IMG/VR virus record: IMGVR_UViG_3300017706_000806
Location: 1-55,825 of that record
Direction: 5' to 3' (one strand)
DNA: 55,825 nucleotides
Origin: a virus
Taxonomy: Duplodnaviria; Caudoviricetes
Below, one piece after another: positions 17,560 through 53,609 of this stretch. Numbering within the stretch: position 1 is the stretch's first letter; every line of letters begins with the position of its first letter. The notes beneath the pieces were generated by a model. The model had not been told where the DNA came from, did not search any database, and saw only the letters and a list, made by a program, of their open reading frames with translations. Position numbers and translations under genes: made by a program.

Positions 17560-20500
17560 TTAAATTTGAACCACTTTATCACAACTAATCATGCTTAATC
17601 CTTTAAAGTTAGTGTTGTTGTAAACTAAGAACTTTAATAAGAATGTTTCATTGTTACCTACAGGAAGAACACTTATAGAACCATTTAGTACTTGCCATGC
17701 TTTATTTTGAATAGCTTCTGTACCATTTGATATTCTTTCCTGTTGTAAATAACCTATATGGAAAGGATCACTTCCTGCTGCAGATGTTACTTCTACTATT
17801 ACCTCTGTTCCAGCAGGATAGTTGGTTGGAGGCGTGAAGTATAAGTCATTTTTAGTTCCTACAGAAGCAGTACGATCTACATTATATCTGCTATAAGGTG
17901 CTGTTAAAGTTTCTACGTAATCAGAGTCAACTTCAAATTGGACTAGAGCACCTGTAGTAATGGTATTTGCATTAGGGCTTACTGAATCTACTATAATATC
18001 CACAAAACCACCAGCTACCACAGTTAACTGTCTAACAATAAAGTTTGCAGTAAATGGAGTTCCTCCAGCACTACCCAACGTAATCAAAGCTCCTACAGAT
18101 ATATTATCAAAAACAGTTTGTCTGCTTGTACTTCCACTATCTAATACATTTACTCTAAGACCTTCTACATTACTTATTGTGGCTGCTCCTGTATGCTGAA
18201 CACAAATTCCTCCAATAGGTGGGTTTGTTAAAGCTGCATTTGCAACAGTTGTTATACCATATGTATTTATATCAAAATATTGATTATAAGTTAATGCTGT
18301 TCCAGTACCAGGTCTTACAATAGGAGCAACAACATCCTCTTCAATTATTTCACCTGATGATGTAACACCAAGCATTTTTGTTGCTGTACCATTAAATTTA
18401 CCGGTACCGTACTCATTGGCAATTAGTTCCCCATCATTTTTTATTTCAAGTTTAGTAGTTGGAGAAGCAGTACCATCCGGTGTTGTTGTAAATTCTATTC
18501 TAGTAGGATAATCTCCACCTCCTGATGCACCATCTCCTTTGAAGAGAATACTTGCAATATCTGCACTAAATACAGAAGAACGGGCTATAAGCTCTGCTAT
18601 TTCTGATCCATCAAATAAACTAGGAGTTGAATTTTCTAATTTAAGTGCTGGAGCATTATTACTTCCTTTTAATGTTAAGAAGTTTGAGGCTGCATTCCAA
18701 TTAAAGTTTGCTTCAGCACCAAATGCACCACTGTTGTTATATTGAACATCTCCATTTGCTCCTGCTGGAGCAGCTGTAGTAGCATTTATAGTTAGTGTAC
18801 TACCAGATAATGCTGTAGTAACGTTTGTACCACCAGCAATTGTAACAAAACCACCACTTGTTACAGGGTCAATATCTCCTGTATCAGCAAATAAACTCCA
18901 ATCGTATGAAGAGCCTGAACTTCCGTTTGCAACAGCTGTAATTCTACCTTGTTGATCAACTGTTAGGTTTGCATTAGTATATGCACCTGGTGTTACAGCT
19001 GTATCATTTAAGTCTATAGTTAATGTATCTGTTGCGGATGCTGTTGATGTTAAACCAACACCTCCAGCTACCAGTACAGTGTTTCCACTTGAAATTGTTT
19101 GTGCACCACCTAAATCTCCAGTTAAATTCCAACCAGTATAAGATCCAGGTATAGCTGCCCAAGTATTATCTCCTCTTAAGAAAGTAGAAGCACTTGGTGT
19201 TCCAGTTGCTGATAGATCAATTATGCCTGTACTAACGGCTCCTGTAGCTGCAGTATTTACTGTAGCTGCAGATATAAATGTTCCATTAGCGTTTGTAAAT
19301 GAATCAACTCCTGTACCACTTGCTGGTAAAGTAACTGTTTTAACATTTACTGCTGTAGGATGACCTGTTGCATCTTGTGTAATAGAATCTACTACTGTAA
19401 ATGTACCACCTGCAGCAGGAGATGCTGTAGATGTTGTGTCAGTTCTTGTTGTGTTATCATGCTCAATAGATAATTGTTTATCAGATCCAATAGTACCTAC
19501 TTGTGTAGTAATTTTATCTCCACCTCTAAATTCAACCTCTACTCCATTTGTTACAGCTTCAATACCTGTACCATCACCAACTGTCCAACTAGACATAGTA
19601 CCTACAGTAGGGAATGTTACTAAATCACCTGCACCATCTACATACTGAGAATTATTTCCTGCCCATGTAAGTGATATTGCGGGTGTACTAGATGCATTTG
19701 CTACTGCCACATCTAAGGCTGTACCTGCAGTTGAAGCAGAAACAAGAGTAACACTACCTCCACCACCTCCGGAGTATATAGGTATGTTTAACACTCCGCC
19801 TACTAAAGTAGCAGCGCCACTTCCACCTGTAGTAGTAAGACTAGTAACTAATCCACCTCCACCAGAGACCCATGGTACATTGACAACTAACTGTTGAGCA
19901 GCATTAAACTGAACACCATATGTTCTAGCAGCTGTACTAGTTACTGCAGCAGCGGCAATAGGTTGTGCTGTGTTATCCCAAAGTTTACCTGTTCCAGTAA
20001 CAGTGTCTGTCATTACTGGTACTGCAGAAGGTATAGAAGGAAAAGTTTGTAAAGCACCTGTTCCATCTATGTACTCTGCTGCTGTACCTGCTCCTGATAA
20101 TGTTATTACCCCAGAACCCGTTATTGGTGAGCCAGCAACAGTAAATGCAGAAGGAGCTGACAAACCAACGCTTGTAACACTCCCTACACCAGCAGATCCC
20201 CAAATCAGTTGACTGCTACCATTAGCTACTAATACCTGACCAGCTACCCCAGGATTACTTGCTGAATCTGTTACAGGACCTTGAATATTAAGTGTACTTT
20301 CTATAACAGTTGTCTGAGTATCTGAAGTTCCTATTGTTAGAAAACCTGGTCCACCAGGAGTTTGTACCATTGGTACTAAAGCACTATCACCTATTGTATT
20401 AGGACCAGTCCACATTGTCATATGGTTTGGAGTACCTGTACCGGCTACACCTGGTGCTGCCCAATTTGCAGTAGTTCCATCTGATGTTAACACTTGTCCT

Positions 20501-21099
20501 GCGGCTCCAATAGCTAACTCTTCTTTAACATCTGTAGAGCTACCTCTCCAAATACTTCCATATGAAAGAGCTACAACAGGATCATCGTCAGACCAAACAA
20601 CTCTACCATCTGCAAGAGATCTTAGAATTCTATTTGCTGTTCCAGCTGGATTACCTGTTGAATCATGTATGACATTAAATAAAGACGTTGATTTAACTAC
20701 ATCTCCTGATGTACCTAATTCTACACGTCCAGATAATCTAGAATCTACATTTACTGTTAAACTTCCGTTTACTGTTATTAAAGTATCTGTAGCATCTTGA
20801 CTTACAATACTATCTTTTAATGCATCTAATGAACAGATTCCATTTTTTACAGTGTATACAGGCAATCTGCCTTCTACTCCTGAACCTGCTATAGTTACCG
20901 TAAGATCCTGTCTTACATCACAGAAAAAATCCTCATACTTAATAGTATAAGGTTGCATTTTAGGATTGTAACTTGCACCTGTATTTAGAGTGCTAGATGT
21001 TAATCTACCAAATTCAAGCCAATCATGTTTTGGCTTTAAGGTAGTCTTTATTTGTTTTCTTTGTATAAGTCCTAAGACTTCTTGTATAAAATTGCTCAT
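17560..21099 (-). CDS. Tail fibre / receptor-binding-like virion protein
   Basis: 1179 aa, rich in Gly/Thr/Ala/Ser. Recurrent fibre motifs GQVL(T/V), SVTSV, TFLRGDNTWA, GAYTNANLTVDQQGRITA and VQYNNSGAFG. Confidence 0.75.
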   Translation of the reverse strand: MSNFIQEVLGLIQRKQIKTTLKPKHDWLEFGRLTSSTLNTGASYNPKMQPYTIKYEDFFCDVRQDLTVTIAGSGVEGRLPVYTVKNGICSLDALKDSIVSQDATDTLITVNGSLTVNVDSRLSGRVELGTSGDVVKSTSLFNVIHDSTGNPAGTANRILRSLADGRVVWSDDDPVVALSYGSIWRGSSTDVKEELAIGAAGQVLTSDGTTANWAAPGVAGTGTPNHMTMWTGPNTIGDSALVPMVQTPGGPGFLTIGTSDTQTTVIESTLNIQGPVTDSASNPGVAGQVLVANGSSQLIWGSAGVGSVTSVGLSAPSAFTVAGSPITGSGVITLSGAGTAAEYIDGTGALQTFPSIPSAVPVMTDTVTGTGKLWDNTAQPIAAAAVTSTAARTYGVQFNAAQQLVVNVPWVSGGGGLVTSLTTTGGSGAATLVGGVLNIPIYSGGGGGSVTLVSASTAGTALDVAVANASSTPAISLTWAGNNSQYVDGAGDLVTFPTVGTMSSWTVGDGTGIEAVTNGVEVEFRGGDKITTQVGTIGSDKQLSIEHDNTTRTDTTSTASPAAGGTFTVVDSITQDATGHPTAVNVKTVTLPASGTGVDSFTNANGTFISAATVNTAATGAVSTGIIDLSATGTPSASTFLRGDNTWAAIPGSYTGWNLTGDLGGAQTISSGNTVLVAGGVGLTSTASATDTLTIDLNDTAVTPGAYTNANLTVDQQGRITAVANGSSGSSYDWSLFADTGDIDPVTSGGFVTIAGGTNVTTALSGSTLTINATTAAPAGANGDVQYNNSGAFGAEANFNWNAASNFLTLKGSNNAPALKLENSTPSLFDGSEIAELIARSSVFSADIASILFKGDGASGGGDYPTRIEFTTTPDGTASPTTKLEIKNDGELIANEYGTGKFNGTATKMLGVTSSGEIIEEDVVAPIVRPGTGTALTYNQYFDINTYGITTVANAALTNPPIGGICVQHTGAATISNVEGLRVNVLDSGSTSRQTVFDNISVGALITLGSAGGTPFTANFIVRQLTVVAGGFVDIIVDSVSPNANTITTGALVQFEVDSDYVETLTAPYSRYNVDRTASVGTKNDLYFTPPTNYPAGTEVIVEVTSAAGSDPFHIGYLQQERISNGTEAIQNKAWQVLNGSISVLPVGNNETFLLKFLVYNNTNFKGLSMISCDKVVQI

Positions 21100-25163: not shown

Positions 25164-26789
25164 ATGGAATATAATAAATATTACTGGCTAAATGAAGACA
25201 GCCGCACATTTCTATCAAGAGGATATATAACAGAAAGTCCTGAGCAAAGGATAAAAGATATTGCTATTAAAGCAGAAAAGTATTTAAATATAAAAGGGTT
25301 TGCTGAAAAGTTTGAGGATTATATGGCAAAAGGGTTTTACTCTTTGTCTACTCCTGTATGGATTAACTTTGGCAAGCAAAAAGGTCTACCTATTAGTTGT
25401 TATGGATCTAACGTTGATGATAATTTAGACAGCATTTTAAATGCAGGTCGTGAAATAGGGATGATGTCTAAGTATGGAGGAGGTACAAGTGCCTTTCTTG
25501 GAAACATTAGAGCTAGAGGAACTGAAATATCTACAGGAGGTAATGCTGATGGACCAATTCATTATGCTAAAATTTATGATACTGTAGTAGACGTTTGCAA
25601 GCAGTCTGAGGCCAGACGTGGTGCTTGTGCAGTATACCTACCAGTTGAGCATGCAGATATCTTAGAGTTCTTAGATATTGGCACAGAGGGTAATCCTATA
25701 CAGAATTTACAGTATGGTGTTACAGTCACTGACCAATGGATGAATGAAATGAAAGAGGGGGACAAAGCTAAACGTAAAGTATGGGCCAGGATTATTCAGA
25801 ACAGAAGTGAGTTTGGTTTTCCTTATGTTATGTTTAAAGATAACTCTAATAACAACTCTCCTTATAAAGAGCTTGGAATGGATATTACAGCATCTAATCT
25901 GTGTTCAGAGATCCAGCTTCCTACTGATAGTTATAACTCTTTTGTATGTTGTTTGGGTTCTATAAACCTATTGCACTGGGATCAGATAAAAGAAACTGAT
26001 GCAATTGAAACATATGTGTATTTCTTAAATGCAGTAATGGATGAATTCATTATTAAGTCTGAGACTATGCCAGGTATGAAGAGAGCATTTAACTTTGCTG
26101 AAAAACATAGAGCAATTGGTCTTGGTGTATTAGGTTATCACTCTTTGTTTCAATCTAAGCTTCTTGAGTTTGACTCATTGGAAGCTAAAGGATTAAATAG
26201 TGAAATCTTTAGAACGCTTAAAGACAGAAGTGAAATTGCTTCTAGAGAGTTACATAATGAGCATGGATACACATCTCTTAGAGAAGGGTATGCTAACACC
26301 ACTCTTATGGCCATTGCTCCTACTAAGTCTAGTTCATTTATACACGGTGCTGTGTCTATGGGTATAGAGCCTATCAAGTCTAATTACTTTATCAAGGATC
26401 TTGCTAAGTCTAAGACTATTTACAAGAACCCATTTTTAGAAGAGGAGCTTGAGAAGTATGGTCTAAATACAGACAAGACTTGGAAGTCTATCCTAAAGAA
26501 AGATGGTAGCGTACAACACTTAGATTTTCCTAGTAAGGCAGTGTTCAAGTCTTTTGTTGAGATATCTCCTAAAGAGATCGTGTTACAAGCAGCACAAAGA
26601 CAAAAATACATTGATCAATCGCAGTCATTAAACTTAATGATTGATCCATCCGTATCAGCTAAAGATGTTAATAAACTTTATATATACGCATGGGAGGAAG
26701 GTGTAAAGACTCTGTACTATCAGTTTAGTAAGAGTAGTGCACAAGACTTTGCTCGTAATATATTAGAATGCTCTAGCTGTGAAGGTTAA
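25164..26789 (+). CDS. nrdA: Ribonucleotide reductase alpha subunit (class I, no ATP-cone)
   Basis: LPISC, GGGT, SNLCSEI, CCLGSIN, AIAPT, KTLYY and C-terminal CSSCEG. Confidence 0.95.
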   Translation: MEYNKYYWLNEDSRTFLSRGYITESPEQRIKDIAIKAEKYLNIKGFAEKFEDYMAKGFYSLSTPVWINFGKQKGLPISCYGSNVDDNLDSILNAGREIGMMSKYGGGTSAFLGNIRARGTEISTGGNADGPIHYAKIYDTVVDVCKQSEARRGACAVYLPVEHADILEFLDIGTEGNPIQNLQYGVTVTDQWMNEMKEGDKAKRKVWARIIQNRSEFGFPYVMFKDNSNNNSPYKELGMDITASNLCSEIQLPTDSYNSFVCCLGSINLLHWDQIKETDAIETYVYFLNAVMDEFIIKSETMPGMKRAFNFAEKHRAIGLGVLGYHSLFQSKLLEFDSLEAKGLNSEIFRTLKDRSEIASRELHNEHGYTSLREGYANTTLMAIAPTKSSSFIHGAVSMGIEPIKSNYFIKDLAKSKTIYKNPFLEEELEKYGLNTDKTWKSILKKDGSVQHLDFPSKAVFKSFVEISPKEIVLQAAQRQKYIDQSQSLNLMIDPSVSAKDVNKLYIYAWEEGVKTLYYQFSKSSAQDFARNILECSSCEG

Positions 26790-30000: not shown

Positions 30001-32661
30001 TTCAGTAAGACTTATGTCCCTAGAGAACTTTACCCCACCACCTTCTATTATTTCTTTTAAATCTTCTTCTGTGAACAAACTGTTCTCAGCACCAAATTCT
30101 TTATTAGAAAGCTCTCTTACTTTTTCTGTAACAAAATCTACAACAGCAGTATTTATTATACCCTCTCTTTTCTTCGTACCCACTAATTGATTATACAAAG
30201 AATTCATTTGGAGAACCATTGATGTCTGGGTTGCATTAAGCTCATTACTTTCTGATAAATTAAAGAGATCTTTATAGGTAGTTAGAAATCTCTGAAAGTT
30301 CATAACATAGCTTATATACTCAGGCTTGTTAATATTTTTAGGATTTTCAACATACTCTTGGAATTCTCTAATTTCTCTTAAAGCATATCTTAACATAGCT
30401 GTATAAGTTCGTGATCTTTGAATTGATCCTTCTCCCATAGTTAAAGATATAAGTCCTATTGCTTTAGATATCTCATCTCGTGTTGCTTTTTCACTCTGTT
30501 TTAAAAATACTTTATTATCAATCTGTTCTAGACCTTTCAGTTTCTTTGTTAGACCTTCTCTAAATGCAGCCAGTGCATTAAAGATTGTATTGTATTCAGG
30601 ATATTCTGCAGCTGTACCCTCCTCTGTATTAACAGATTCATCATCTCTACCTACATAAGGTTGTTCAGGATCATTCTTAATCTTTTCATTTAATATATCT
30701 TGCTGAAAATTATCTATCTGATAAGGAAGTAATTCATTAACAAGATTAATATTTTCACTTGGCGCATGTTGATGCACACCATCTATATCAATCTTACCAT
30801 TAAACTTTTGATTCTTACCTTGACCACTAACACCTGATATAACATGAATGGTGGCAGCACCATGATAGTCTGCTTGGATCTTATAACCCATGTTTTCAAG
30901 CATGCGTCTTTGCAGTCCTACCTTTAAGTTATGTTTAGCCCTAGCAGAAAGTTTGTTTTTATTTTTTAATCCTTTTAAAGAAAATATATCACTGAAGCTG
31001 CTTGAGGTGCTCATTAAATCAATAACCTTTATTGCACCAGTAGGATCCATTATAACAACATCAGCTTTTGTAGCAACTTTCTTTTCAGAATCAAATAAAA
31101 CAACTTGAGGAATAGCTACAGACCCCATAGGTTTCAAAACTTTCAATTGATACGTAAACTTCTTGTACATTTCTGCAGCCTCTTCTTGACTTAAAACTTT
31201 CATTGTGTCAGCTGCAAAGTCAGATCCAATAATTGCAGCACTCAATAAAGTATTTAAATCATCTTTGATGTTTAAATCTAATTGTGTTTCTTTTTGATCA
31301 ACTGATGTATCTTCAATTAATTGATCTACTGATTTATACACTTCACCTGTAGTGATATTATAATATGTATTATCTGATTTATTTAATACTACAATATCAC
31401 TTCCTTCTGCTGCCACGTTTATATTTGCTGATAAACTATCAATTTTAGTTTTATCTTTTGTTACAGAATTAAACATCTGCTGAATAATAGTCTTCTGTGT
31501 AGGATTATCTCCTGCTTGTTCTAATAAAGAATCATAGACTTTCTGCTTTTCTGGTGTAAGAGAATATCTTATTTTACCATTAGCAACTTTTTCTAATTTA
31601 AACCTTATACCTTCAGTATTCAAAAGCTTTGCTAAATCACTAAATGTACTTTGGCTATTAATTGCAGTAACAGGCAATGTCCCACCTGTTATATACTTAC
31701 TCAAATCTTTTATGACATTCATAAACCACTCTAAAGCTTCTTGAATTCTATTTAAGAAAGATTTAGTAGGTTGATTTTCATATTCATTTTTAAAATGTCT
31801 AGTTAGTGCTTGAGTTACTATTTCAAGATCTCTTTCTAACTGAGTAAAGTTTCTTCTTTTGTTATAAGCATCAGTAATTTGTTGAGCTAGCTCAGGAAAA
31901 TTTTTCTTTGCTTCAGCAAGTAACCCATCAAATAATTCTGAATTATCTACTTTAATTGCATCAATGAATGGATGCAACATTTCTTCTATTGCTGTTTCAT
32001 CAGTGACTCTACCTCTAATTAAATACGCAGTTCCATCAACATAAAAAGAATTAACCTCAGAAAAGTTAGCCGTTGTCTTCTTCCATTGTGGCAATCTAGC
32101 ATATAATGCTTCAGCATCAGAAACAGATAACATCTTTACTCTAATCTGCGGAAACATTTTCATTAGATGTGTAACTACAGCCCTTGATCTATTAGTATCC
32201 CATGATCTAGAACCAGGTAATACATCTCTAACAGTAAAAAGATCACTATCAACTTTAACTTTATAACTTAATGGAGTTCTTGTTATGCGTACTGACTCAA
32301 GAGGAATATTATTTATTTCTAAATATCTAGTTAGTCTATTAAGATTGTTCTGTAAAAATCTTTCATCATACTCTCTAGTTTCAGGATTGGAATTATTAAT
32401 TAAATAAGTATCTTGATACTTATGAATTATCTTTTCTCTTCTTAAGTTATTTAATACACTTTCCCCAAAGCTTCTTTGCTTTAATGCAAAAGATGTTTTA
32501 TTAGTTTTAACAAAGTCCTTTGCTTCAACAACAGTTGGAAACACATCAGTATCATTTGTATTTTGCCAAGAAATAATAACATTATTAGTAACTAATTCGC
32601 TACCATAAACCTTTTGTAGTGCTTTATATTCTGCAGTATTTTTATTTGGACATGTTGCCAT
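27031..32661 (-). CDS. Large virion cargo protein (vRNAP-associated) with degenerate zincin and PD-(D/E)xK domains
   Basis: 1876 aa, directly after the vRNAP gene. Contains EEMLH, KADVVI...IDLMS and a C-terminal IHGNY...QFKKW...EGRY region. Confidence 0.8.
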   Translation of the reverse strand: MATCPNKNTAEYKALQKVYGSELVTNNVIISWQNTNDTDVFPTVVEAKDFVKTNKTSFALKQRSFGESVLNNLRREKIIHKYQDTYLINNSNPETREYDERFLQNNLNRLTRYLEINNIPLESVRITRTPLSYKVKVDSDLFTVRDVLPGSRSWDTNRSRAVVTHLMKMFPQIRVKMLSVSDAEALYARLPQWKKTTANFSEVNSFYVDGTAYLIRGRVTDETAIEEMLHPFIDAIKVDNSELFDGLLAEAKKNFPELAQQITDAYNKRRNFTQLERDLEIVTQALTRHFKNEYENQPTKSFLNRIQEALEWFMNVIKDLSKYITGGTLPVTAINSQSTFSDLAKLLNTEGIRFKLEKVANGKIRYSLTPEKQKVYDSLLEQAGDNPTQKTIIQQMFNSVTKDKTKIDSLSANINVAAEGSDIVVLNKSDNTYYNITTGEVYKSVDQLIEDTSVDQKETQLDLNIKDDLNTLLSAAIIGSDFAADTMKVLSQEEAAEMYKKFTYQLKVLKPMGSVAIPQVVLFDSEKKVATKADVVIMDPTGAIKVIDLMSTSSSFSDIFSLKGLKNKNKLSARAKHNLKVGLQRRMLENMGYKIQADYHGAATIHVISGVSGQGKNQKFNGKIDIDGVHQHAPSENINLVNELLPYQIDNFQQDILNEKIKNDPEQPYVGRDDESVNTEEGTAAEYPEYNTIFNALAAFREGLTKKLKGLEQIDNKVFLKQSEKATRDEISKAIGLISLTMGEGSIQRSRTYTAMLRYALREIREFQEYVENPKNINKPEYISYVMNFQRFLTTYKDLFNLSESNELNATQTSMVLQMNSLYNQLVGTKKREGIINTAVVDFVTEKVRELSNKEFGAENSLFTEEDLKEIIEGGGVKFSRDISLTELMTKDMATSGETLLTIMDKIYKRQKQVLLNKIGVREEVIRKTGEKLFKLSPGSDKQRIFDFMLEFDSDNKFTGFYTKKIGQKYYTMAQDLYKELSDNNGTPYDYNPILNVEDGTAEELAFNKDLADKKKAYSDFMRAEIIDDNGNRLDGVYHKYTQEFIDARNKFEILSNGYWIVRNNVDLAEYTAYKAKYYENRTYTKAIRVDGAATGAVILNQEYNKGVKRDYIEPREVSGNGESMRSEKYEALYDPSKTDALTLAQREFYEMYVQYYEDELLKKLPEQQQNQMLGRVPLVRNELVSTLKEEGSLFTKLYSNTVRSWKNLTERTASEKTLLANEDGSIYKGLPVFLTGSAAVDGALETVEADIRALKDDYKQDKITKANYKQQIALLNGKANSLRNKPAVGEVSTDMASSLLQFSAMAEHYEVMGQIEDTLNAFVKVISDKDYQSSNSNETWFQKGVDGVLRTTGVSRQESGDASNVEKRARKYMSMVFYDNELVSKGAASKIASKLISLSSLTYVAFNPLGNLNNYLMGRINNNIEMLGGRFFDKSAYIRASKEFNLQGLQSGLFQRLGSATVELADIATLGKAGIKTSTYDPDLANNLYEAFVEELRMMDPSSDLRESGNKSKDAETIWQRFKRVGYVMQDAAEYNVQTKVGMAIIMSSQNYMMKNSETGETLSYYDAHVFDTKTHKTRLKEGYDKVIFKNGTERDYNETTKAIITQEIREVNKQIHGNYSSDDKMVLQSYVLGNLAAQFKKWVAPAIRSRFQREYFDENLGHMEGRYRSFWKFLGHAKEQIYKGNLDIAKYKDSFLKEQGFVGEGGNRDQYATNKILGVYRSMGELGIILSVMAINLVLDSALAGDDDDSPYVRKLKNALKKQSGRLVAETTQFVPLFPAAGFDQLVGFVNNPISASKNVENLVDALLITGRTPLGLITKTDEEFRSNKTYVYQRGYRKGQLKLWKEWKDVIPILYSIEKWNNLIEEQKYNIRY

Positions 32662-32687
32662 AACTTATATATCTTATTATTTTTGAT

Positions 32688-35600
32688 TTATAAACATCCT
32701 AAAGATTCAAGAAACTGTTCATCTGAAGTATAAATATTATTATTCTTACGTGACTCAATTAAATCATTCAAAGATAATATATTTTGTGCTTTTAATTTAG
32801 TCAACAAATCAGCATTATTTTTAATGTTTTTGTTCCAATAATCTACTATCTCTGTATATGGATCCTCAAGCTGTAATTTTAATTGATTATACAACTGTGA
32901 ATCCAATGATGTAACAGATTCTTCTGTCTCTAACAGTTCATTTTTAGTTCCACTAATTGGTTGAACTAACTTTAAAACAGCTTTTCTATTTCCGTTATCT
33001 TCACCCCATTTCATTATTTTACCTGTTGTTACAGACATTATTTTATTGTCTTTATTAACAAGATATTTCTTGCCAAGATATTCAACAACTTGAGCCTGCC
33101 CTCTTTGTACAGCTAAGTTTCCAGCAAGCTTATTTCTATCAACACTGCTTTCTTTAAATACCTCAACTCCTTTTTTATTGAAAAATTTATTACCCCTTAC
33201 AGTATAGGTTTGTTTTTCTTTACCTTTAGGTGTATACGTTATTGTTTCAACCTCACTAGCTTGTTGTGTTGGTTGTGCTGGTGAATTTAAAAGATCCATT
33301 AAACCAGCAGCTGATACAGAATTGTCCTCTACATCTGTTTCTGTAACTTCATCTATAGGTTTACCATTAACTTTTAATGTATCAGATGTAGCTTCAATGT
33401 TTGCACTTTCATCTTTTAACAGTCTTTCCCGTATCTGATCTTGTTGACTTTCTTGATCTTCAGTAAACGTTTGATCTTGGACAGGTTGATTAGGACTTAA
33501 ATTCTTTTCAGACACATATGCTCTATTTTCAGCATACGTTGGTCTTTTACCAAACATAAATCCTATACCGCTTTGTTGATTAGACCCATACGTTGAAACT
33601 TCTACAAAAGTATCTGTAATGCCTCCTTCATTTAATTGTTCACCAGTGTCAACTTCTGACCTAATATATGTTACATAAAAACTTGAAACGTTATCTGTGT
33701 AATTTACTCGGATGTAATTAAATCCTTCAGATTCATTTCTTTCAAATACAAGTGATTTATCCTTTCTGTTTATCTTTCTTATTGTACTTGTTGTATCTTT
33801 ATTTGCATCCATGTTAGTTACAACAGTGTATGTATTTAATAAAGCATTATTAACATTAGATTGCATATAACCATCAACAAACTCTTTTTCAAATTCATCA
33901 AAAGTTAAACCAAAGGTTGACATCATCTTTTCATCTGATGCATCTCTTAATCCTTGATTTGCAGTATCAATTTGAGATAGAAAATCATTCATTATAAAAG
34001 GACTAACAGCATCTAGTAATGAACCATACTTTAATTGCAAACCATCTTTAACCATCATGTAATTAACAATAGACAAAGCATCACTTCTAGTATCTGCTGT
34101 ACCATATATTTTAGCAAATGAAGTTTGAAGATCTACTTTTTGTAATGGGTTCATACTTAAAAAAGTATTTGCCTCAGCTAAGTTCATTCCTGTTTGATTA
34201 CTTATATCATTAGCACTTTTCACTTGAACAAAAGAGTTTAAGAAAAAGTTATCTTGCATATCTTCTCTTGCCCTAAGCTTATCAACTAACTTAACAATTG
34301 AATTAACTGACTCTATTTCAGGAAGAGGGTATATAAAATTATTATCTAAGTTGGCTACAAACTGTGAGTTATTTTCAGACTTTAATTGATTATGTTGATA
34401 TGCTTTAATTGTAACATATGATAATAAGTCTCTTGATACTGCAGCAAGAGCTTCTTCATTAAATTCAATATTATTTTGATTTACATCCTGTAATGTAGTA
34501 TTTAATATTGACTGGAAAGGTGTACTAGCAGACAAGAATGTTGCTGGTAAGATCTGATCAACTACTTGATTAAATATTTCAATGTACTTAGATTGCCAAG
34601 TTTCACTTTTGTAGATCTTAGACAAATCCATCATTGGCTTAATTTGTTTTGTTTTACCACTTTTTGATAATAGAATTTGTGGCTCAAGTAAAGAATTTAT
34701 ATCAGCTTTCTTTTTATTTACAGCTGAAATATCTTTACCAAGACCAGTAGTAAGATTTGACACAGATGACATCTTTCTTGTAAACTCTTGAATCTCAACT
34801 CCTTTTAAAAATTCAGTTAATATAGAAATTTTCTCAATATCACTGAGGTCTTCTTCATTTTCAATAGCTTCATATAGTAGTTCATCTGTTAATGGAACCA
34901 AAGATAAATCTCTATTAGCTGGTGTTCTCAACTCTTCTATTGCTGCTGTTGCTAACTTCTTAACTCCAGGATCTAACTTTTCTACTTTATTTAACGCCTT
35001 ATCATAAATCTTTTGTATAGTAGGATTATTGACCAATAACAAAGAGGTGCGGATTGGCACTCCCAATGCAGTAAGATTTCCTACTAAGTTTAATGCTGAT
35101 CTATTAAGACCAAGTTTTGCAACTAATCTTTCTTTTGCATCATCTGTAGCCATAGTAATTAAAGAAGAAATAATATCTTGCTTTCTAAGGCCATCTTTGT
35201 CTTTAGTTATCTTTTCTCTAAGAACACCAAAGTTATCATATGAAACACCATTAATATTGATAATCTTGCTTTTATCTTCAATTGAAACATCATACTCAGT
35301 CAATAAACTTAAATTGACATTAGGAGATACAATGGCTCCAATAGCAGCCCCTTTGTTATTTTTAAATGCATTTATTTTTCCTAGTAAGTTGTTTATATCA
35401 ATAGAATCTTCAGCATCTCTTTTCGCAAATAAATTTCTTGTCTCACCTGTACTAAGATTAATTAATCCTTGTAACTCACTTTTTAATATATCTAAAGCAG
35501 CAGGCTGGTAAGAAATAGGTAACTCTTCACCTACTGTATCTTCAGTAACTGCAGTGTTCCCCATTAATGCATACTTGTAATCTAAGATCCTGTTATTCAT

Positions 35601-38600
35601 TGGAGCTTGATAGGGTTCCCCATACTTTTCTAAATACTTTTTATACTCTTCTAAAGATATAGGTAGTCCTAATATTCGTAATGCTTTTATTCCTGATTCA
35701 CTTAAACCAGCTTCAGATGCAACTTCATCTTCAGCTGTATCTTCAATGTTTTGCATTTCAGCTGATTGTTCACTTTTATTAAATAGATTGTATGCCTCAG
35801 AATAAGTTGTCCCTGGTTTACCTACCTTTTCATTTACATAATTAATATACTCATCATACTTATCTTCAGTATTCTCAGCTTTACCGTATTCAACAAACTT
35901 TCTATCTTTAACATAAAAGTCTTTAATTTGAGCATATACTTTATCAATATCAAAATCCGCTCCTGATATTTCTACAAGCTCCTGAGCAAATGATGCAGAA
36001 GAACCATAAAATGCTGGTAAAAAATCTACATGTTTTATATTAACAGTTGAATGATTATCTTGAGATGGAATACGTATACCAAACATCTTAGATAATACAT
36101 CTGGCATTTCCATTCCTCCATTTTCTATTAAGTCCATTACACTTTGGAAATGAGCAGGCATAAGCATTTCAGTATATCTTAAGCCGGTAAACTCTCCATT
36201 GCTGTCATACTCTTTGACATCTGATCTTAAACGGTCAATTACAACAAGCCCTTCTTTAGGAAAGTTGCTTCTAGATAAAGTGTCAAACTCAACAATATCT
36301 GGTTTATTAGTAATCTTGTCCCAAACCTTTTCTCTTATGATTTCAGATCTATCTGGAATACCGTTTTCATCTACAGAGAAAACTCTTCTATAAACTTTCA
36401 TTCCAAAATCAGAAACTAATGTCAAGCTTAATCCAGGTTGCTTTTCAGCTAGAGAACCTTTACTCAGATAACTCAAAAACAACTGTTCAAACTTATTTAC
36501 AGTAATTGGATTATTTAAATTATATTTTTGTTCTCCTTCTTCAGTTGAGAAGAACTCTAATAATTGTGAGCTAGATTGAGAAGCTTTTAATCCTTCTGTT
36601 GCATATCTTAAAAAAGCTGTCAGATTAGGTGTAAGCTCACCTTTATCTTTTGAGATTGCTAATTCATCCATGGCACCATTAAAAGTAAAAATAAGGTTTC
36701 TCTTATTCTTAAAGTTTATCTCAACTCTCCTTGAAATGGCTTCATTATATAATCTTCTTACATCACCAACTTTCATCACCTCACCCTTTTCATTTAAACC
36801 CATTCCAGGTATTGGTGTTGAATCTATTTGTTCAGAAGTAACAAGTGCTTTAATTTGTGTTGGATCAATAGACTCTAATTTATTAGACGGTGTGGCAGAC
36901 TGAAGACCCATGTCCATTGCAGAAAGAGTTGTATAGTCTTTCTCATTAAATGGTTTATCTTGATTAATTCTGTCTAAAGGTTGAACTCTTTGCTTTAACA
37001 TCTTCAACGCACTTTCAGGTGCAGCTATACCAAGAGTTTCCTTTTTAGATTCAATCTCTTCAAGTCTATTTAAAAGATTATGTAGTCCTTCTCTATTTGG
37101 TTTAGCTTCATAAATAGTAGTACCATTTTCATCTGTCCCAATTGGGTTAGAAGTAAGCTGACGAGACAACATAAAAGCAGACATCTTTATAAAAGTAGTG
37201 CCATCAAAATACACAAGCTTCTTAGAATTAAGCATTGCATTATCTTGATTGACATAACCATCTAACCTAATAGGTTTCTCTTTTTTTGCTAATTCAAGTA
37301 CTTCAGTTCTAGCTTTGCTATCATCTATAAGTACTTCAACATTATCATTATCAAAAATCTTTTTACCTTTAACTATATATGTTTCTTCTTCTAACTTAAC
37401 AACCTTAGCGCTTTCTCCAAACATCTGCCAAGAAGTTACTTCCTCTCCCTGATCTATTTTGTCATATAAAGCTGCTATACTAGGTGTCAATTGACCAAAA
37501 CCAAAAGACATATATCTGCTAGCTTTGGGAGTCATCCACATCTGTGCATCAGCTACATCAATATTGTTTCCTGTTAATGCAGAAATCTCCTTAATCTCTT
37601 CTATTGCTATTAAGCTTATATCATCTACACTATGATTAATGCCTTGCTCAGGTGCACTGATAGAGCTGTATGCGCTTATGTATGCTGCATTTTGTGCCTT
37701 TGCTCTTTTAATTGCATCAACACCATTTTTTAAAGTAACTGCTTGATCACCCAAAAATATTTCATTTATTGCTTGAGTATTAATCCAGTCATTCAAAAAT
37801 ATTTGCTTCAAATTATAATCAAAATCATCAGTAAGATTTAACAAGTAGTTAGACTCTACTAATGCAGGAGTAGCTTTGCCACTTTTTCCAATCAAACCTT
37901 GTTTAATCTTTTGGCTAATTTGCATATCTACACCAAGACCTTCTAGCTCAGATTTGAACTCCTCAAACTGTAAATCTAATTTTTCTCTAACCTCAGATTT
38001 AAGCTGGTCCATTGTCACATCCCGTTCAAGTAATGCTTGCTCTAATGTGGTTCCATCAAAACGCTTAGCAATTTCCTCTAAGTTATTTTTCAAATCTGAA
38101 GTTAACAACAAAGAAGAATTATGTAATGTGTAAGCTTTCATTGGAAGAGGCTTTCCTTCCTCATTATATCCTTCTATATTATATCCAACAATTTGCTCCT
38201 CTGTTTTAGTATCAGGATTTGACTCTCTTTGAATACGCTTATATTCTGTATCAATACTATTTATATAAACATCAATTGCGTTATCAGTAATTTTAACAGC
38301 ACCAGAATTTCCACTTTCAAATTCTACAGCTCTAATGATAGGCATGTACATCATGTCTCCAGTGTTAGAAGACTCAAGTACTCTAATTAAACTTGGCGCT
38401 AATGCCACCTTTAATCTTTCATTTGTTATTGGATCAATTACTTCAACATAATCAACTTTATTTGATTTAGTATTGACCAGTGCTGTATAACTGTTTATTA
38501 AACTTGATGCAAACTCTTGAGGCGTAAAGTTTCCATAAGTAGATTTATATGATACACCTGATATATTTTCATTAATCTCTTCCTCTGTACTATTAAGTTC

Positions 38601-41600
38601 TCCAACTTTAGTACCTGCAACTCTTATTACACGCTGTCTTTTTTGATTAGACATCTCTATAAAAGCAGGATTATTTAAAAGATGATTGTTTTCTAAATAC
38701 AAATCTTCTTTTTTAGATTCTAATGTTGCGGGGTTATTTAATGCTTCAATTTGTTTTAAATGGAATGTTGGTTTCTGATGAGCATATACTAAATTACCTT
38801 CAGTATTTCTAAATACAGATAGTCCAATTGTTTCATCAAATGGAGCATTTCCCTGAGCAATCTTTACTAATCTAGATCTCATTCCATCTTCACCATCACT
38901 AAAGATATTTTCTTTATCTCTAACTAAAGTATACATCTCTCTAATAACTTGAGATGTAAGCGGTTCATCTTCATACTTGTGAAGATCAACCAATGCTTTT
39001 TGTTCATGATCTACTTCAGTTGTTTTTGTACCATCTTCATTTTCAATAGTTTCTGAAAAAACGTTACCTGCTTCAACTCTATTATATAAAATACTATACT
39101 TTAAATACTGAGCACTTATCCTTATACCTGTTAAATCAAATAATAATTTGCTATATTTTCTAGCATCTTCAGTGGCCGCTCTACTACTTTTTTTATCTGT
39201 TTGATTCAACAGCCCTATTAATTCTACTAATGTCTTTTCAGCTTTGCTTGCTGTAGAAGTATTTGACTTAATCTTCTTAAAAGCATCATTCCATGCCTGA
39301 GACCATTCATCTACTTGAGAGTTAATATCATCTCTTTGTGCAGCAGAATAAGTTATAATATTACCTAGTAAATCTCTTTGTGTAAATAAATAATCTACTC
39401 TAAAGTTTTCAAATGCTTTAGTAATAGATTGGAACAACAAAGGATCTTGCATCTTTGGTAAAGGGCTATCATTCAATAGTGTTTCTGTAGATACTCCTAT
39501 ATCTTGTAATATTCTAGCAACTACAGCACCTGTTGCTGCATTTTCCTGTCCAAAGAAATACATTGTTTGTAGCATCTTTTTTGGATCAGTAATGTTTTTA
39601 ACTGATTTTAAAAGGCCGTTGTATACTTCTGTAAAAGGAACAGGTATAATTAAAGGTTCTTTATCTTTAATCAGTTCTTTATTACCAAAGAAATCTGTTG
39701 CATCCATAGTAGTAGTAGCAATATATGCCCTAATCATTCTTGGTGTAGAATTTATTCCTCCAATTAAAGAGGCATCTGTATTCCATTGACTAGAAGCTCT
39801 AACACCAACAGCATCTTCAAAGTACTCAGTGTTATATTCCTCTTCAGCAATTTGACCATCTATAACATTTAATATATCATAAACCTGATCTTTAATAGAA
39901 TCATCATAATTATCAAATGCATTTGTTATGCTATCTAATATTTCTTTTTGTGTTTCAGATCTTTCTTTATTTACGTCACTTTCAGAATTATATAATTGAT
40001 AAAAATCATCAATTACCTCTTCCAAAATATCACCCCTGTTTGTGTTAGGTTTTGTAACTTTAGAAACTCTAGATAGATACATTGCTGCAATACTTCTAAT
40101 TAAAGGATCAGCTATTGAGCTATCTAAATAAAGGTAACCTTCATTATTACTATCTTTATCTGTAATCTTCTTATATGGTATTAATGCATTAGCTTCTAAT
40201 GTTACACCTGAAGATAAACCAGTAGTAAATTGATTTAACATTGTTGCTGAAGTTCTATATTTTCCTCCATCAATGTTTTCAAATAAAGTAAGCAGTTCAT
40301 TTTTATTATATGAATTGAAGAAAGATTTAATCCATTCTAAAATTCTAGTAAAGAAAGATTTAACAGAAGAGTCTGTTTTAGATGATCTTGGATTTGCTTT
40401 AAATTTTTCAAATTCATTTGCTAAATACTCTTCATAGTATTCTTGCTCTAATCTAGACCTACTCATATTTGAGTATGTGTCAGCTGATTTTCTAAACTTG
40501 TTGAGTTCTTGCTCAAAGTTTTTACCTTCAGCTCTTAAGTTAGCTCTAACTTCCTTTCTTGCAAATGATAAATATTTATTAATCTCTGCATCAGTTAATA
40601 GCATTCTAAAGACACCGTGAAATGCTTCATGGTATCTATATGGTGAATTAGCTCCTGTATACAATGTACCTGAAATATTCAAGCCTCCAGCTAAGTGATT
40701 TAGATTTAAACCAAATGCACCAACTCTTACCCCACCAGATTTCATATTATTACCTAAAGTATTAATATCTTCAATGCTAATAAAGTCAGGCAAATTTTCA
40801 CTAGCCCAAGCTACAAAGACATCAATATCTTCAACATCTTTTTGTGTTAATGCAGGTGCTATCTTATTGGCTATATTACCAAAGTTTTTAATTTCTTTAA
40901 GAAGTTTTTGGTACTCAGCACTTTTCTTTAATATCTTTCTATGCTTCTTTATGTCTTCACCAGCAACAAGTTTATCTTTAAGAGTATCTAGTTTCTGATT
41001 AAGCTTTTCTAATTCTGTAACCTCACTGCTAGTTGTATCTTCTTTTAAAATTTCTTCTACTTGCTCTGCCTTTTCTTCTCGCATAGCCTGCTCTTGAGCA
41101 GTAAGTTCTTTACCTGCTTTAATCTTATTTGCTATAGCATTAATACGGGCATCTGATACTGTAGCATTATCAGTAAATTCTCTAAACTCTTTCTCTGTAA
41201 CCTCACTAGTAAGTGTTTCTACTGTTTCTATACCTAGCTTTTGTTTTTGTTCAATAGTTAATTGAGCTATTTTTTTAGGATTGTTTATTTCAGCACCACT
41301 TATCTCTGATGTCTTTTTAACAATACCACCAAATGCAGCTACAACCAGTTCTTCAGCAGTTAATCCATCTCTAATAACTATATCATTGTCTGCAAGTCTT
41401 TGTTTAGTTTCTCTATCTTTATTTCCGTCTGCATCAAAAAACACAGATTCAGCTCTATCAAGTGAACCATCTAAGTAAGTTTTTACAGTTACCTCTACTG
41501 TAAAACCATTTTCTTGATTTACAGTAAATGTTTCTTTCTTTAAAACAACATTATCATCTTCAAACTTTTTTTCACTATTTATCTCAGCTGTATTACTTTC

Positions 41601-44600
41601 TTCAGCTATCTGCTCAAGAGTTTTAGTACTTTGTGTAGCTGTAGCAATCTTTTTAGCTTGTATAGATGCTGAGTCTGCACCTATCTCTATTTTAGATACT
41701 CCAGCTACTTGAGGTTTAGCATTCGTTCCAGTCTTTTCTATTAACTCATTAATACCAACTTCTCTTCCATATGACTTTTTAAAATTATTAGTTGATAATA
41801 CTAAACCTTTTTTGTTTCCTGCTTCAGCACTACTTGTTGAATTTTTAAATAAATCACTTTGATTTGCCTTAGCAAGTAAAGTATTTAATTTTGCCTTTAA
41901 TGTAGCTTTGCTATTAACTTCTGATTTGTCTAATGTAAAGTAAAAACGTTGCTCTCCGGTTAAAACTTGAAGCTGAACTTTACCATACATATCTACTTGC
42001 AAGCTAATATTAAGATTTCCATAGCCAGAAATAAATAACCCATCTCTTATAATCTGATTGGTCTTTGGATCTATTTTATCCTTTCTAAGTTCTTCATTAA
42101 ACTGGTTGTTGAATGTAGGATTTTTACCGTCTTTATTTTCCTTTTGAGTAAGTTGTGCTCTTTCAAACACTTCAACTAATAATGTATCTAATGATTCAGG
42201 AGAAAGAAATTGTGACTTTAAAGGAACCATTCTGTAAGTTCCGTCTGGTAAAAGAACTACTGCTTTGTATGCATCTGATCCTTGTAGTAAATTACTATTT
42301 AATTCTGATTTTCCTATAGCATTTTCTACTTTATTTTCTAAAGCTTCTAATTCAGTTCCTGATAAATTACTAATAGGAATTCTACCTCTTCCTGTACTTC
42401 CTTGTTCTAGCTGATAAATTAAATAGTTTCCTGAGTTATCTGCAGCACCTTCATTTACTAAATCTTTAATGCTTCTAGCTTCTTTATCATAAACAACATT
42501 ACCCAATATGGAATTAAAAAATAATCCTTCTGATAAATCATTTTGAGTGATAGTTAAAAATGATCCGTCTGGAACATTTTCCATTAACCTATCTACTTCA
42601 GATATCAACAAACCCTGCTTTGTCCAATTATCTCTAACCTTATCTAATATTTGAGCTTTAGTAAGTTTACTCTTTAATTTTTCTGTACTACCAATTACCT
42701 GATTTAACTGTTGTCTAGTCAAAGCCATTGGGTCTACACCTCCAAAAAACTGAAAGCTATCATTGGGCATATAAGCAAAAATCTTTGTATCTACACCATC
42801 ATTATCTAACTTAACAAACGCATTTGGTTTTCCATCTGAATCATTTGATGAAAACAAAGCATCAATCTTACTTTGTACAGCAGAACTACTGGTTCTAATA
42901 CCTATTTGATACTTTGATTTTTTATTAATAATATATGGATTAGGTTCAAGATTTCCATTACTATACTGAGTAGTTGTTAAACCTCCTTCAGGATCTTTCA
43001 TTACAACAAACTCTAACGTCTTTATATCCTCATAACTCAAGACATTTAAAATCTTATAATACCTATCCTTAGCCGCAGCCCAGTTATTCTCTCCTGGATT
43101 TTTACCACCATAGGGTGTAACAGGTTCTGAATATGTTATCCTAGAAACACTTGCTGGTAAAAGTTGAAAATCTTTGTCTTCAAGTTGATAAAACTCACCA
43201 AACTGACCAGCTTTTAAATTTATATATACACCATTATCTTTTTTCTCTTGTGAACTTAATGATACAGCAGATGCAGGTATTAATGTTAATCTTTCTCTTC
43301 GTATAACATTATCAGAATTGCTAAAAATAATATACTCTGCAGGGTTACCATTATCATCTTTTTCAGTTAGGCTATATACTTTTGTACCAAAAGATAAACC
43401 TTCAATACCATCAAAATCAAATGTGCCATCACTTGGCATATTTATCTTAAGTAGTTTCCAAGCATCTTTTGCTTTATCTTTTTCATTAAAAAAGTTAATG
43501 TCAGATGCTACACCTGCAGCTTGAAGCATGTCACCAGATATTTTTTCTCCTGTCTTAGAGTCAATAATCTCATATACATCACTTATGTTGCCTTCTGCAT
43601 CAGCCATCTTTTTAGTACGTACTGAAATAACAGAACCTCTTAACTCTGGCTCAATTCTATAATTGCTATTGCCTTCAAGATTTTCTCCAGTTTCAGATAA
43701 CGTTATATCCTGACCTGAGATATCTGCCAATGATATATTTAATGTATCTAATACTTGACCAACTAAATCATTATTTCTACCTTCTAAAGATGTTAACCAG
43801 TTCATCAAACCAGCATCATTATTTATCTGTTCTTGTGTAAGCTGTCTATCTGCACTTAAAACCTCTCTATCATTATTTATCCATATTTTTTTAATAGCAG
43901 TATATGCTTCTCTATAGGCTTCACCTTCTTGAGTATTAACCCAATCTTTATACTTAAGTGATTTTTTACGGATTATTGCTTGAGTGCGTTCATACTTTCT
44001 ATAAGCCCTTTTTAATATACTAGTTAAAACTTTTGATTCACCTGCAGGAATTTCAACATCAATATCTTTTATAATATCTTGAATGTCCTGTCTGTTTTCA
44101 GCTGTCTGAGCTTCCTCTGTTGCAGACTTTACTTCTTCTTGAGTTGGTGCCGCTGCTTTAGCGTATATAGCTTTTAATCTATTAATTTCATTAAATGCTA
44201 CAGGGTCATTTTGAGGACTTATTATACCTCGCTCATTATAAAAAACTGCTAAATCTTCTACGTTGTTTGTGCTAGCAAATTGAATAACGTCTTGAATCTC
44301 AGGAATAGGTGTTCCAAATTCTCCTTCTACTGAATCAATCTCATTAAACAATCTATTTTGCTCTACAGTATTTAAATATTTATCTAAAGACTCTCTAAAG
44401 ATTTTTTCTTTATTTCTATATATTGCTTTTATTTCTGTTTTGCTTCTTTCAAAAACTTCTTTAAATTTCTCAGGATTAGCTAAAGCCTCAATAGTTTTAT
44501 TATAAACTTTTGCTCTTCCTTCTAATGCACCATGATCAACAATTAATTTTAATGCTTCATCTATAGCGTCTTGATTAACAAATGATCCTGACTTCTTAGC

Positions 44601-50300: not shown

Positions 50301-50698
50301 TGCTCTCTATTTTGGCTATCTAATAATCTATTAGCATAATCCATTTCTTTTCTATAAGCAGAAGTAAAAACTACATCTCTAACCATTAGTTTATCTTCAA
50401 AGAAAGGTGCAAAAACTGCTTTAGCAGAATCTGCATTTTGAGCAAGTGACAAATCCATGCCAGCAATTTTTTCAAGAGAGGGTGCTAAATTGTCAACATA
50501 CTGATCTCTACGTTCTTTATTATCTTCTCTAGACAAATCAGCATACACTACTTTGTTATAAACATCATTAGTAGCCTTAAAATTAGTAGAGTACTTATCT
50601 TGTCTAACATCTAAAACAGCAGACAAAAATTTATAATCCGGTGTAAACGGTTGAATGTCTGGTAAAATATTTTTTGCTCCTGGTACGTATGTTGCCAT
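47324..50698 (-). CDS. Virion cargo/ejection protein
   Basis: 1124 aa, helical, no Cys found, immediately upstream of the vRNAP gene. N-terminal QPFTPD motif. Confidence 0.7.
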   Translation of the reverse strand: MATYVPGAKNILPDIQPFTPDYKFLSAVLDVRQDKYSTNFKATNDVYNKVVYADLSREDNKERRDQYVDNLAPSLEKIAGMDLSLAQNADSAKAVFAPFFEDKLMVRDVVFTSAYRKEMDYANRLLDSQNREQREKWWGPGVKALQYKMDDFVNATPDQALNFGLPKYVEDADLVETAQKILGEMKPPLKMKVTVTKKNPDGTIDPMWNIEQQNGDLVVGPAKEYLMKTLQDDPRIQRAYQTQSYVQSRDFAAEGIAAGDFTSVQEGQQAWAAETISRIEANNNARLSKTQAKVQELENINLRWDDYHKNNGIIPGSDQDKTMKKQMNAYEAMKAELNNQMQVQDLARKPIGEGSQASLNRAYQLLMGANMMGDMITAAKIFSMREFEAKLVETPYSKYRYKKTLQDNAARNARNLEAIKQVNRRQLAKEKGELMFDEEGNSLSKVLKDERKRAGDPAATDAKSKDGKPNPDFDVVYEETIKAYNTKTDRLYSDKVDAIAKYMTMLEPNGNDGSQRYSYTDASGKVFTGTIEEVKTTLIAPTQIASASSGMGGVSRQEKDFAATANEKLINELYKDYSNKMYNSADKDGLEAKYPDIQKSKSFLSLRQGMQALDGEEVKLSQFLKGALRIQKQTYDAARTKTFAENSDAAGFDKNGMPGIWEKLDDGTFFPMTRTQHGDMAVKLAKEGKLTNYNSTGWDNNNNKKYLKDERKQMEWYNFVPETVTLPNGKTRTVMNHVYSTLEEGRLKGSTDQSFKTGVVYFIDDDTGERVRAPERKPRGNYTRAKEIDEKSIRNEAGMFYKAEKKNMNQALTGNYGDAYKTATLESMMRGASESNAGLSSNPTYIADIDAKGLNPFADQMAADLFRQMSELEARGIAPKYIQGSLNDFKDSDLSDAEAFNVGEEVLRMFRADLVSYLSNPKASNTLSSIPRATIEYSPVYGAPADGDKTTAGYRIIFNKDWLASKVKGGADPEKQYGSIKSSDFEKLENGVSVVFEQIDDVSPRSNMQSLEFSSPILAEIAANPNNYYEPPAFLNEDGDVIGTYRFVRNGDMEYQLNWQFNNYVQGGTFTTSQPLSKNIKIDEQGPAEALRLESEWVQGVFTQAGKRYSLAKSKDHKLNAKKQ

Positions 50699-50702
50699 AA
50701 TG

Positions 50703-50733: not shown

Positions 50734-50757
50734 GATCAATTTTAAAACCCTTAAGGT

Positions 50758-53607: not shown

Positions 53608-53609
53608 AA

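Follow-up and report, generated by a model that had tools for sequence, protein, structure and literature searches.

The window analyzed here, the whole 55,825-base stretch of the IMG/VR virus record IMGVR_UViG_3300017706_000806 (guanine-cytosine content 33%, zero N), carries five consecutive minus-strand open reading frames (ORFs) of 724, 949, 1124, 4874 and 1876 amino acids (aa). Among their 9547 residues, a scripted count found only two cysteines, one at the penultimate position of the 4874-aa protein and the other at residue 4 of the 1876-aa protein encoded next to it. The same facing arrangement was kept in every informative relative of this phage and recurred at nearly all of the corresponding protein breaks that we read in named Crassvirales. 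The best explanation is that the two cysteines are a selected terminal thiol pair at the sole gene break of an RNA polymerase cargo module, and the sequence comparisons suggest that, on balance, an end-to-end disulfide probably joins the C-terminal end of the polymerase to the N-terminal end of the next protein.

We named the modules of this block after the gp numbers of phage crAss001: A is gp47-like, B is the gp50-like polymerase and C is gp49-like. The features of the window used below are:

53610-55784, minus strand: 724-aa protein, no cysteine (scripted count)
50758-53607, minus strand: 949-aa protein, no cysteine (scripted count)
47324-50698, minus strand: 1124-aa protein, no cysteine (scripted count)
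47324-55784, minus strand: these three cysteine-free proteins (1124, 949 and 724 aa) together, upstream and without a terminal cysteine, presumed cargo
32688-47312, minus strand: 4874-aa protein, identified by alignment as a gp47-like module (A) fused to a gp50-like RNA polymerase module (B), sole cysteine at residue 4873
40113-40625, minus strand: projected A/B fusion point, aa ~2230-2400, cysteine-free (coarse projection from BLASTP offsets)
35007-36926, minus strand: RNA polymerase catalytic region, aa 3463-4102 (motif, tblastn and BLASTP)
32691-32900, minus strand: C-terminal domain of ~70 aa, for which AlphaFold2 predicts a five-helix bundle preceded by a disordered linker, with the cysteine past the last helix
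32694-32696, minus strand: TGT codon of Cys4873, penultimate residue (..ESLGCL-stop) of the 4874-aa protein
32662-32687: intergenic spacer of 26 nucleotides (nt) between the 4874-aa and 1876-aa genes
32650-32652, minus strand: TGT codon of Cys4 (MATCPN) of the 1876-aa protein
31462-32661, minus strand: N-terminal domain (aa 1-400) of the 1876-aa protein, modeled with Cys4 in coil before the first helix
27031-32661, minus strand: 1876-aa protein, homologue of crAss001 gp49 (module C), sole cysteine at residue 4

An earlier note on this DNA had described the 724-, 949- and 1124-aa proteins as free of cysteine and had placed a single cysteine in each of the two larger ones; the scripted count (0/0/0/1/1 per ORF) bears this out, and the coordinates were right as well. 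Only a leucine codon, the stop codon, the spacer and the codons for M-A-T stand between the two cysteine codons. The 4874-aa ORF was listed with a TTG start (47300-47312, minus strand), with ATG at residues 3 and 5 as alternatives, and no choice among these adds a cysteine. In the 19 other window ORFs of at least 150 aa, we counted 72 cysteines in 6980 aa (1.03%), a background that predicts ~98 cysteines for the five proteins, of which two were observed (0.02%). The cysteine frequency of the block is thus far under that of the other proteins of the phage, as in the cysteine-suppressed ejected proteins of the Schitoviridae type. Two cysteines placed at random would both lie at the facing ends of a single junction among the four, each no more than five residues from its end, with a probability of 2.2e-6.

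Conservation was assessed with a profile built from the first 400 aa of module C, which retrieved 80 IMG/VR loci at 43-73% identity. Two of these (L066 and L078) end at a contig edge, leaving 78 informative loci, many of them near-duplicates, with 24 distinct junction types. Both facing cysteines were kept in 78/78, in agreement with the conservation anticipated in the earlier note, and they lie at residue 3 or 4 of the downstream protein and 2-5 residues from the C-terminal end of the upstream protein. No further cysteine occurs in the ~1330 and ~1730 aa read on either side, except for an extra one at residue 399 of the 400 read in locus L087. The spacer ranges from -1 to 24 nt in these relatives, and hence no fixed DNA element ties the two cysteine codons. 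In the 78 loci, the ATG stands 1-5 codons past the preceding in-frame stop, which pins the start codon. The cysteine codon is TGT at the N-terminal end in 78/78 and at the C-terminal end in 73/78 in these AT-rich genomes, and given this near-exclusive use, synonymous variation adds little support.

To compare the protein ends, we aligned the window with 22 of the 78 loci, approximately one per junction type and picked by eye (23 rows). In the last 110 aa of the polymerase, which evolve fast (mean column identity 28%), the cysteine is the sole invariant column, and in the N-terminal domain of module C, with a mean column identity of 58%, C4, N6, N8 and Y12 are invariant. The polymerase is one open frame of 4517-5161 aa in 5/5 relatives searched, and none of the 78 loci has a fused B/C junction. 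Two complete relatives repeat the five-gene arrangement, G004 with proteins of 848/842/1116/4769/1969 aa and 0/0/0/1/1 cysteines, and G005 with proteins of 667/836/1052/5156/1927 aa and 0/4/0/1/1 cysteines. The four cysteines of the 836-aa G005 protein, a homologue of the 949-aa protein of the window, are clustered (residues 524, 526, 535 and 536) and may represent an inserted metal-binding knuckle; the cluster is absent from the window and from G004.

PHROGs and Pfam yielded no family for any of the five giant proteins, a PDB sequence search with the 4874-aa and 1876-aa proteins gave no match at E <= 0.01, and the junction DNA had no match among 50,697 phage records. By these comparisons, the phage of the window is a divergent lineage. 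Its polymerase was recognized through an acidic D-x-D-x-D metal motif, DFDID, at aa 3786-3790 of the 4874-aa protein (35943-35957), and through a tblastn search with aa 3101-4300 that matched 64 phage records, in which all named ones were crAss-like and the annotation, where given, was putative RNA polymerase or RNA polymerase catalytic subunit. With BLASTP, crAss001 gp50 (1231-1801) aligned to aa 3463-4102 at E 5e-17, and gp077 of phage phi14:2, a 2180-aa virion polymerase (KC821624), aligned to aa 3689-4272 through its residues 1259-1830 (E 6e-9) and to aa 3163-3297 through its residues 855-1004. Upstream of the polymerase module, crAss001 gp47 (2156-2290) aligned to aa 2227-2352 at E 3e-5, a weak but collinear match, and the gp47-like homologue of cr85_1 aligned at E 1e-3. 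The combined length of the two crAss001 proteins (2341 + 2412 = 4753 aa) is comparable to that of the 4874-aa protein.

The 1876-aa protein matched crAss001 gp49 in three collinear stretches (phmmer, E 5.9e-22), and BLASTP also aligned it to the C-terminal parts of seven fused polymerases. Matches between module C proteins and fused polymerases were not returned by phmmer, although BLASTP finds them, and we used the BLASTP result; no homology emerged when the N-domain profile was compared by hhalign with the central part of p-crAssphage gp44. By these alignments, the 4874-aa protein is an A+B fusion and the 1876-aa protein is module C, and the block has the composition of the gp47/gp50/gp49-type cargo block of crAss001, with a polymerase module, a gp49-like module downstream and a gp47-like module upstream. 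Homologues of these modules are virion proteins: crAss001 gp47, gp49 and gp50 were found in virions by mass spectrometry, as reported in passages of the structural study of that phage (PMC10172136), and the phi14:2 homologues are annotated as structural by tandem mass spectrometry in their sequence-record notes. The polymerase protein and the next protein are probably packed and injected by the phage. The earlier note had called all five proteins cargo. This holds for the polymerase and the gp49-like protein in so far as their homologues are seen in virions; the 724-, 949- and 1124-aa proteins showed no similarity to crAss001 gp45 or gp46 and are presumed cargo from their position and their lack of cysteine.

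We then read the module breaks in 13 named Crassvirales genomes of four families, a non-random sample of which 11 came from match lists and two were chosen by accession. At the A/B break, a facing cysteine pair is present in 11/12 genomes as annotated (crAss001, cr85_1, cr128_1, IAS virus, phi14:2, p-crAssphage, cr11_1, Rudgehvirus, cr3_1, cr8_1 and cr127_1). For instance, crAss001 gp47 ends ..LRCNS-stop and gp50 starts MSKRC, phi14:2 gp078 ends ..NTIC-stop and gp077 starts MAC, and p-crAssphage gp45 ends ..SFSCM-stop and gp44 starts MSC. In the twelfth genome, crAss002, gp32 ends ..FVCS-stop, and the annotated start of gp33 has no cysteine and is followed by an in-frame MSC at residues 33-35. 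Read from this methionine, gp33 begins MSCTP.., like the MSC starts of other Intestiviridae polymerases, and its start (MN917146, 15750-15860) has probably been annotated 32 codons too far upstream.

At the B/C break, the pair is present in 6/6 genomes (crAss001, cr85_1, cr128_1, IAS virus, phi14:2 and cr118_1); in crAss001, Cys2404 of gp50 is the ninth residue from the C-terminal end and gp49 starts MAKKC. The cleanest case is phi14:2, in which the three modules gp078, gp077 and gp076 contain exactly four cysteines in 5398 aa, each on a facing tip: Cys1797 of gp078 faces Cys3 of gp077, and Cys2179 of gp077 faces Cys3 of gp076. The corresponding pairs in crAss001 are Cys2339 of gp47 and Cys5 of gp50, and Cys2404 of gp50 and Cys5 of gp49. 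Across families, the C-terminal cysteine lies anywhere from the last to the ninth-from-last residue, and the outer ends of the chain (the N-terminal end of A and the C-terminal end of C) have zero cysteines in the 13 named genomes and the window. In four genomes (crAss001, cr85_1, cr128_1 and IAS virus), the genes for A and B lie on opposite strands and the pair is still present. It is therefore a feature of the proteins and not of the gene junction, which excludes an explanation at the DNA level.

Record annotations also place thioredoxin-like genes near the polymerase block in some of these genomes (p-crAssphage gp39 and gp37, a thioredoxin in cr8_1 and a thiol-disulfide isomerase in cr128_1); no thioredoxin-like protein was found in Pfam and PHROG scans covering part of the ORFs of the window. 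In IAS virus, gp055 and gp056 have 11 nt in common and ambiguous bases put X into their translations; the polymerase split between them may be a sequencing artefact.

Where modules are fused, the pair was not found. The A+B protein of the window has no cysteine in residues 1-4872, and cr118_1, which also has A and B fused, has none at ~1700-2040, where the junction projects. Seven polymerases with B and C fused (Intestiviridae and Crevaviridae) have no cysteine in their last 75 residues and 0-1 cysteine, never a pair, in the projected junction interval, whose width of ~600 aa reflects the unequal module lengths of the lineages. The earlier note had expected the pair to vanish upon gene fusion, and with this coarse mapping it did: facing pairs stand at the splits and none at the projected fused junctions.

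Structure predictions placed both cysteines at accessible tips. In the AlphaFold2 model of the polymerase C-terminal end (110 aa), approximately the first 35 residues are disordered and helices span residues 41-108, with means of the predicted local distance difference test (pLDDT) over 10-residue blocks of 39-40 for residues 1-30 and 85-95 from residue 51 on. The model of the N-terminal 400 aa of module C has a mean pLDDT of 70, with residues 1-9 as coil. A complex prediction with the two end domains scored 0.40, the best of three controls 0.02; agreement among the three runs was at least 37% of contacts, and the partner pLDDT was at least 55. In calibration, the mark was reached by 58/80 solved complexes and 2/110 mismatched pairs, and at scores of 0.60 or less by just 7/80 solved complexes and both passing mismatches; the prediction used custom alignments, so that these counts hold only roughly. 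The N-domain of module C (31462-32661) contains the conserved stretch GRVTDETAIEEMLHPF. Its model had no Foldseek match in the PDB at E <= 0.001, and its best rows included zincin-type proteases (Pro-Pro endopeptidase and lethal-factor-like folds) at a non-significant E of 0.15-0.3. The one row relevant to N4 gp50, obtained with this domain of the 1876-aa protein, was also non-significant (E 0.3).

The one solved analogue of such a link comes from cyanophage A4. In passages of the cryo-electron microscopy study of this phage (PMC12002296, PNAS 2025), the C-terminal helix of gp27 inserts in a cleft of gp26 and a Cys1715-Cys5 disulfide stabilizes the contact. In the A4 genome (Anabaena phage A-4L, KF356198), gp27 and gp26 are adjacent genes in the same order as the window pair; gp27 (1717 aa) has its sole cysteine at residue 1715, third from the C-terminal end (..NPCQF-stop), and gp26 (1114 aa) has its sole cysteine at residue 5 (MSKHC). 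The two systems thus share adjacent genes for large internal or ejection proteins and sole cysteines within five residues of the upstream C-terminal end and in the first five downstream residues. A4 differs from the window phage in that it is a small podophage of the T7-like kind and lacks a virion RNA polymerase, and the passages seen report its bond as a single structural detail and not as an order-wide rule, without a fused/split equivalence. The A4 bond is a precedent for the linkage, so that the statement in the earlier note that such a linkage was not described was too strong (PMC12002296).

Closer to the window, crAss001 and phi14:2 have homologous modules, the same terminal cysteine rule and homologues detected in virions; they differ in that A and B are one 4874-aa protein in the window, with one break and one cysteine pair left. 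The crAss001 study (PMC10172136) does not use the word "cysteine" in its main text, and the disulfide passages seen there concern none of the cargo proteins. According to parts of the same paper, the cryo-electron microscopy maps did not resolve these polymerase proteins, reduced and unreduced virion samples were run for mass spectrometry, and the authors argue for partial unfolding of the cargo proteins and N-to-C exit of gp45 (PMC10172136). We found no description of the rule for Crassvirales in the literature searched; the disulfide list and the mass spectrometry table that accompany that paper could bear on the claim.

Cysteine suppression itself is known from other ejected proteins. In Schitoviridae, N4 gp50 and DEV gp71 lack cysteine and the residue is suppressed across the ejection proteins, which has been related to passage through the periplasm; for DEV gp71, gp72 and gp73 and N4 gp50, the sections seen report no functional cysteine and judge the few found to be annotation errors (PMC11445570). 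The statement in the earlier note that the N4 virion RNA polymerase is cysteine-free agrees with this source. The window resembles these phages in having a giant, presumably ejected virion RNA polymerase that, with its neighbors, is nearly cysteine-free, and differs in its tip pair and in its polymerase, that of N4 being another enzyme type. The T7 core proteins (NC_001604) also have few cysteines: together, gp14, gp15 and gp16 hold one in 2261 aa, at the second position of gp14 (MCW..), and gp15 and gp16 have none. Unlike the window, T7 shows no facing pair, and the gp13 C-terminal end and the gp14/gp15 and gp15/gp16 junctions are without cysteine.

Starting from the observed count, conservation, module homologies and split/fused rule, we infer a bond in the particle between the cysteine after the last helix of the polymerase C-terminal domain and Cys4 at the loose N-terminal tip of the 1876-aa protein. 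It would create a linear 6750-residue chain with the polarity of a single polypeptide, the disulfide replacing the peptide bond that joins the modules in lineages with fused genes. Because it lies at the extreme tips, such a link would leave the chain unbranched and could let it pass a narrow tail in single file, with the order and the proportion of the proteins fixed and all other cysteines purged as in other ejected phage proteins. Given that the 724-, 949- and 1124-aa proteins lack terminal cysteines, such a chain would comprise two proteins and not five. Release by reduction after entry is possible and, like the time at which the bond would form, pure inference; it would not be required, as natural fusions (the 4874-aa protein of the window and the Intestiviridae polymerases) work joined.

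Several points weigh against an end-to-end disulfide. The cytoplasm in which assembly takes place is reducing, and the gut that many relatives inhabit is anoxic, so that it is doubtful when oxidation would occur, or whether it would. Since both cysteines are present in every informative locus, co-variation is not measurable within the lineage. The contrast between fused and split forms depends on distant families and a coarse junction projection, and when 150 aa are added at either end of the interval, 5/7 fused B+C polymerases have a single cysteine in it. Loss of both cysteines on fusion would also be expected if the tip cysteines had another end-specific role. Other, non-polymerase cargo proteins have orphan tip cysteines without a facing partner in the adjacent protein: p-crAssphage gp47 has one second from its C-terminal end, with the following gp46 lacking any cysteine, and further cases are crAss002 gp30 (eighth from the C-terminal end), Rudgehvirus g49 (eleventh from the C-terminal end) and cr8_1 19920 (Cys5). 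At IAS virus gp055/gp056, a partnerless cysteine lies four residues from the end of gp055, amid ambiguous bases. The complex prediction supports docking of the end domains weakly by the tool's own calibration, and A4 serves as analogy only and not as a sign of family membership, given that no homology to its proteins was found (no BLASTP match, 0.3% hhalign probability for the N-domain profile against gp26, and nothing in Foldseek).

An unlikely alternative that draws on these same points is that the tip cysteines are not bonded mutually, each linking instead to its own copy in a tip-to-tip homodimer or to a cysteine-bearing particle protein of the portal vertex or tail barrel. The orphan tip cysteines fit this idea, as does the loss on fusion, which suits any free-end role, and many structural disulfides are described for the crAss001 tail and portal vertex in the passages seen (PMC10172136). 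However, the tip cysteines come in pairs at the module breaks (78/78 loci, 6/6 at B/C and 11/12 at A/B as annotated), neither outer end of the chain has such a cysteine in any of the 13 named genomes or in the window, and the described A4 structure shows a hetero-pair (PMC12002296), all of which favor a bond between facing tips.

We consider it rather improbable that the two cysteines jointly bind a metal, or that they simply belong to the surface on which the two end domains dock non-covalently, with no disulfide in either case. Thiolates are good metal ligands, which counts for a metal site, and the complex prediction gives some weak support to docking (0.40, with 0.02 for the best control). 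However, there are just two thiols, with no conserved histidine or further cysteine near the tips; the invariant neighbors are N6, N8 and Y12, and the C-terminal tail has no second invariant column. The sliding of the C-terminal cysteine from the last to the ninth-from-last residue also fits a flexible tether over a fixed metal site. Of similarly low probability, in our judgment, is a role of the thiols after entry, as a redox or assembly switch uniting the modules in the host cytoplasm, with any disulfide in the particle a by-product of air oxidation. Such a switch would suit the strict anaerobes that the record host lines give for many relatives, the cytoplasmic assembly and the fused forms, which show that the modules function as one unit. 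Yet the rule is the same in the marine phi14:2 and in gut phages, the strictly terminal placement is not needed for a cytoplasmic thiol switch, and the A4 bond, as described, sits in an ordered pre-ejection complex (PMC12002296). Chance, relaxed constraint at protein ends or a wrongly annotated start codon is hardly credible: the near-exclusive use of one cysteine codon (TGT) keeps the synonymous evidence small, but the probability in the window alone is 2.2e-6, the pair is invariant over 24 junction types at 43-73% identity, the start is pinned by a nearby in-frame stop, and no re-annotation can move the C-terminal cysteine.

Other readings of the terminal cysteines were rejected. A lipoprotein signal would involve a signal peptide, which is absent, the cysteine being at residue 3-5; a split intein does not fit ends without intein-sized domains; a CaaX-type tail does not fit a cysteine that slides from the last to the ninth-from-last residue; and a conserved DNA element at the junction does not fit spacers of -1 to 24 nt or genes on opposite strands in four named genomes.

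Elsewhere in the window, the plus-strand genes form a replication set (DnaB-like helicase, AAA_24 ATPase, primase, PD-(D/E)XK nuclease, DNA polymerase and ribonucleotide reductase) that resembles that of crAss-like genomes. The large-subunit homologue of ribonucleotide reductase (25164-26789, plus strand) ends ..LECSSCEG, with cysteines at residues 536 and 539 of 541; a C-terminal cysteine pair in ribonucleotide reductase large subunits is used for their re-reduction. A 1179-aa ORF on the minus strand (17560-21099) is cysteine-poor (4 cysteines, 0.34%), with one cysteine 7 residues from its C-terminal end. It has no PHROG or Pfam family, and plus-strand genes stand between it and the cargo block.

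The polymerase proteins that crAss-like phages store and feed through a narrow tail before the DNA amount to ~0.7 MDa; in crAss001, gp47 contributes 262.5, gp50 276.9 and gp49 154.5 kDa. If the facing tips are bonded as we propose, the modules would travel as a single thread with order and direction fixed, which would account for their occurrence as fusions in some families and as separate proteins in others. The window extends this picture to a divergent lineage that has a single break left and hence a single pair, and the cultured phages phi14:2 and crAss001 make the idea directly testable. More tentatively, the polymerase modules of Crassvirales could be regarded as one "stitched polyprotein," in which evolution swaps the peptide bond of a fusion for a tip-to-tip disulfide, even across strands; the modules would always exit as one unbranched N-to-C thread, and the host cytoplasm may cut the stitches. 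If true, this would amount to a redox-coded general rule for ejection order and stoichiometry in the phages that are most abundant in the human gut.

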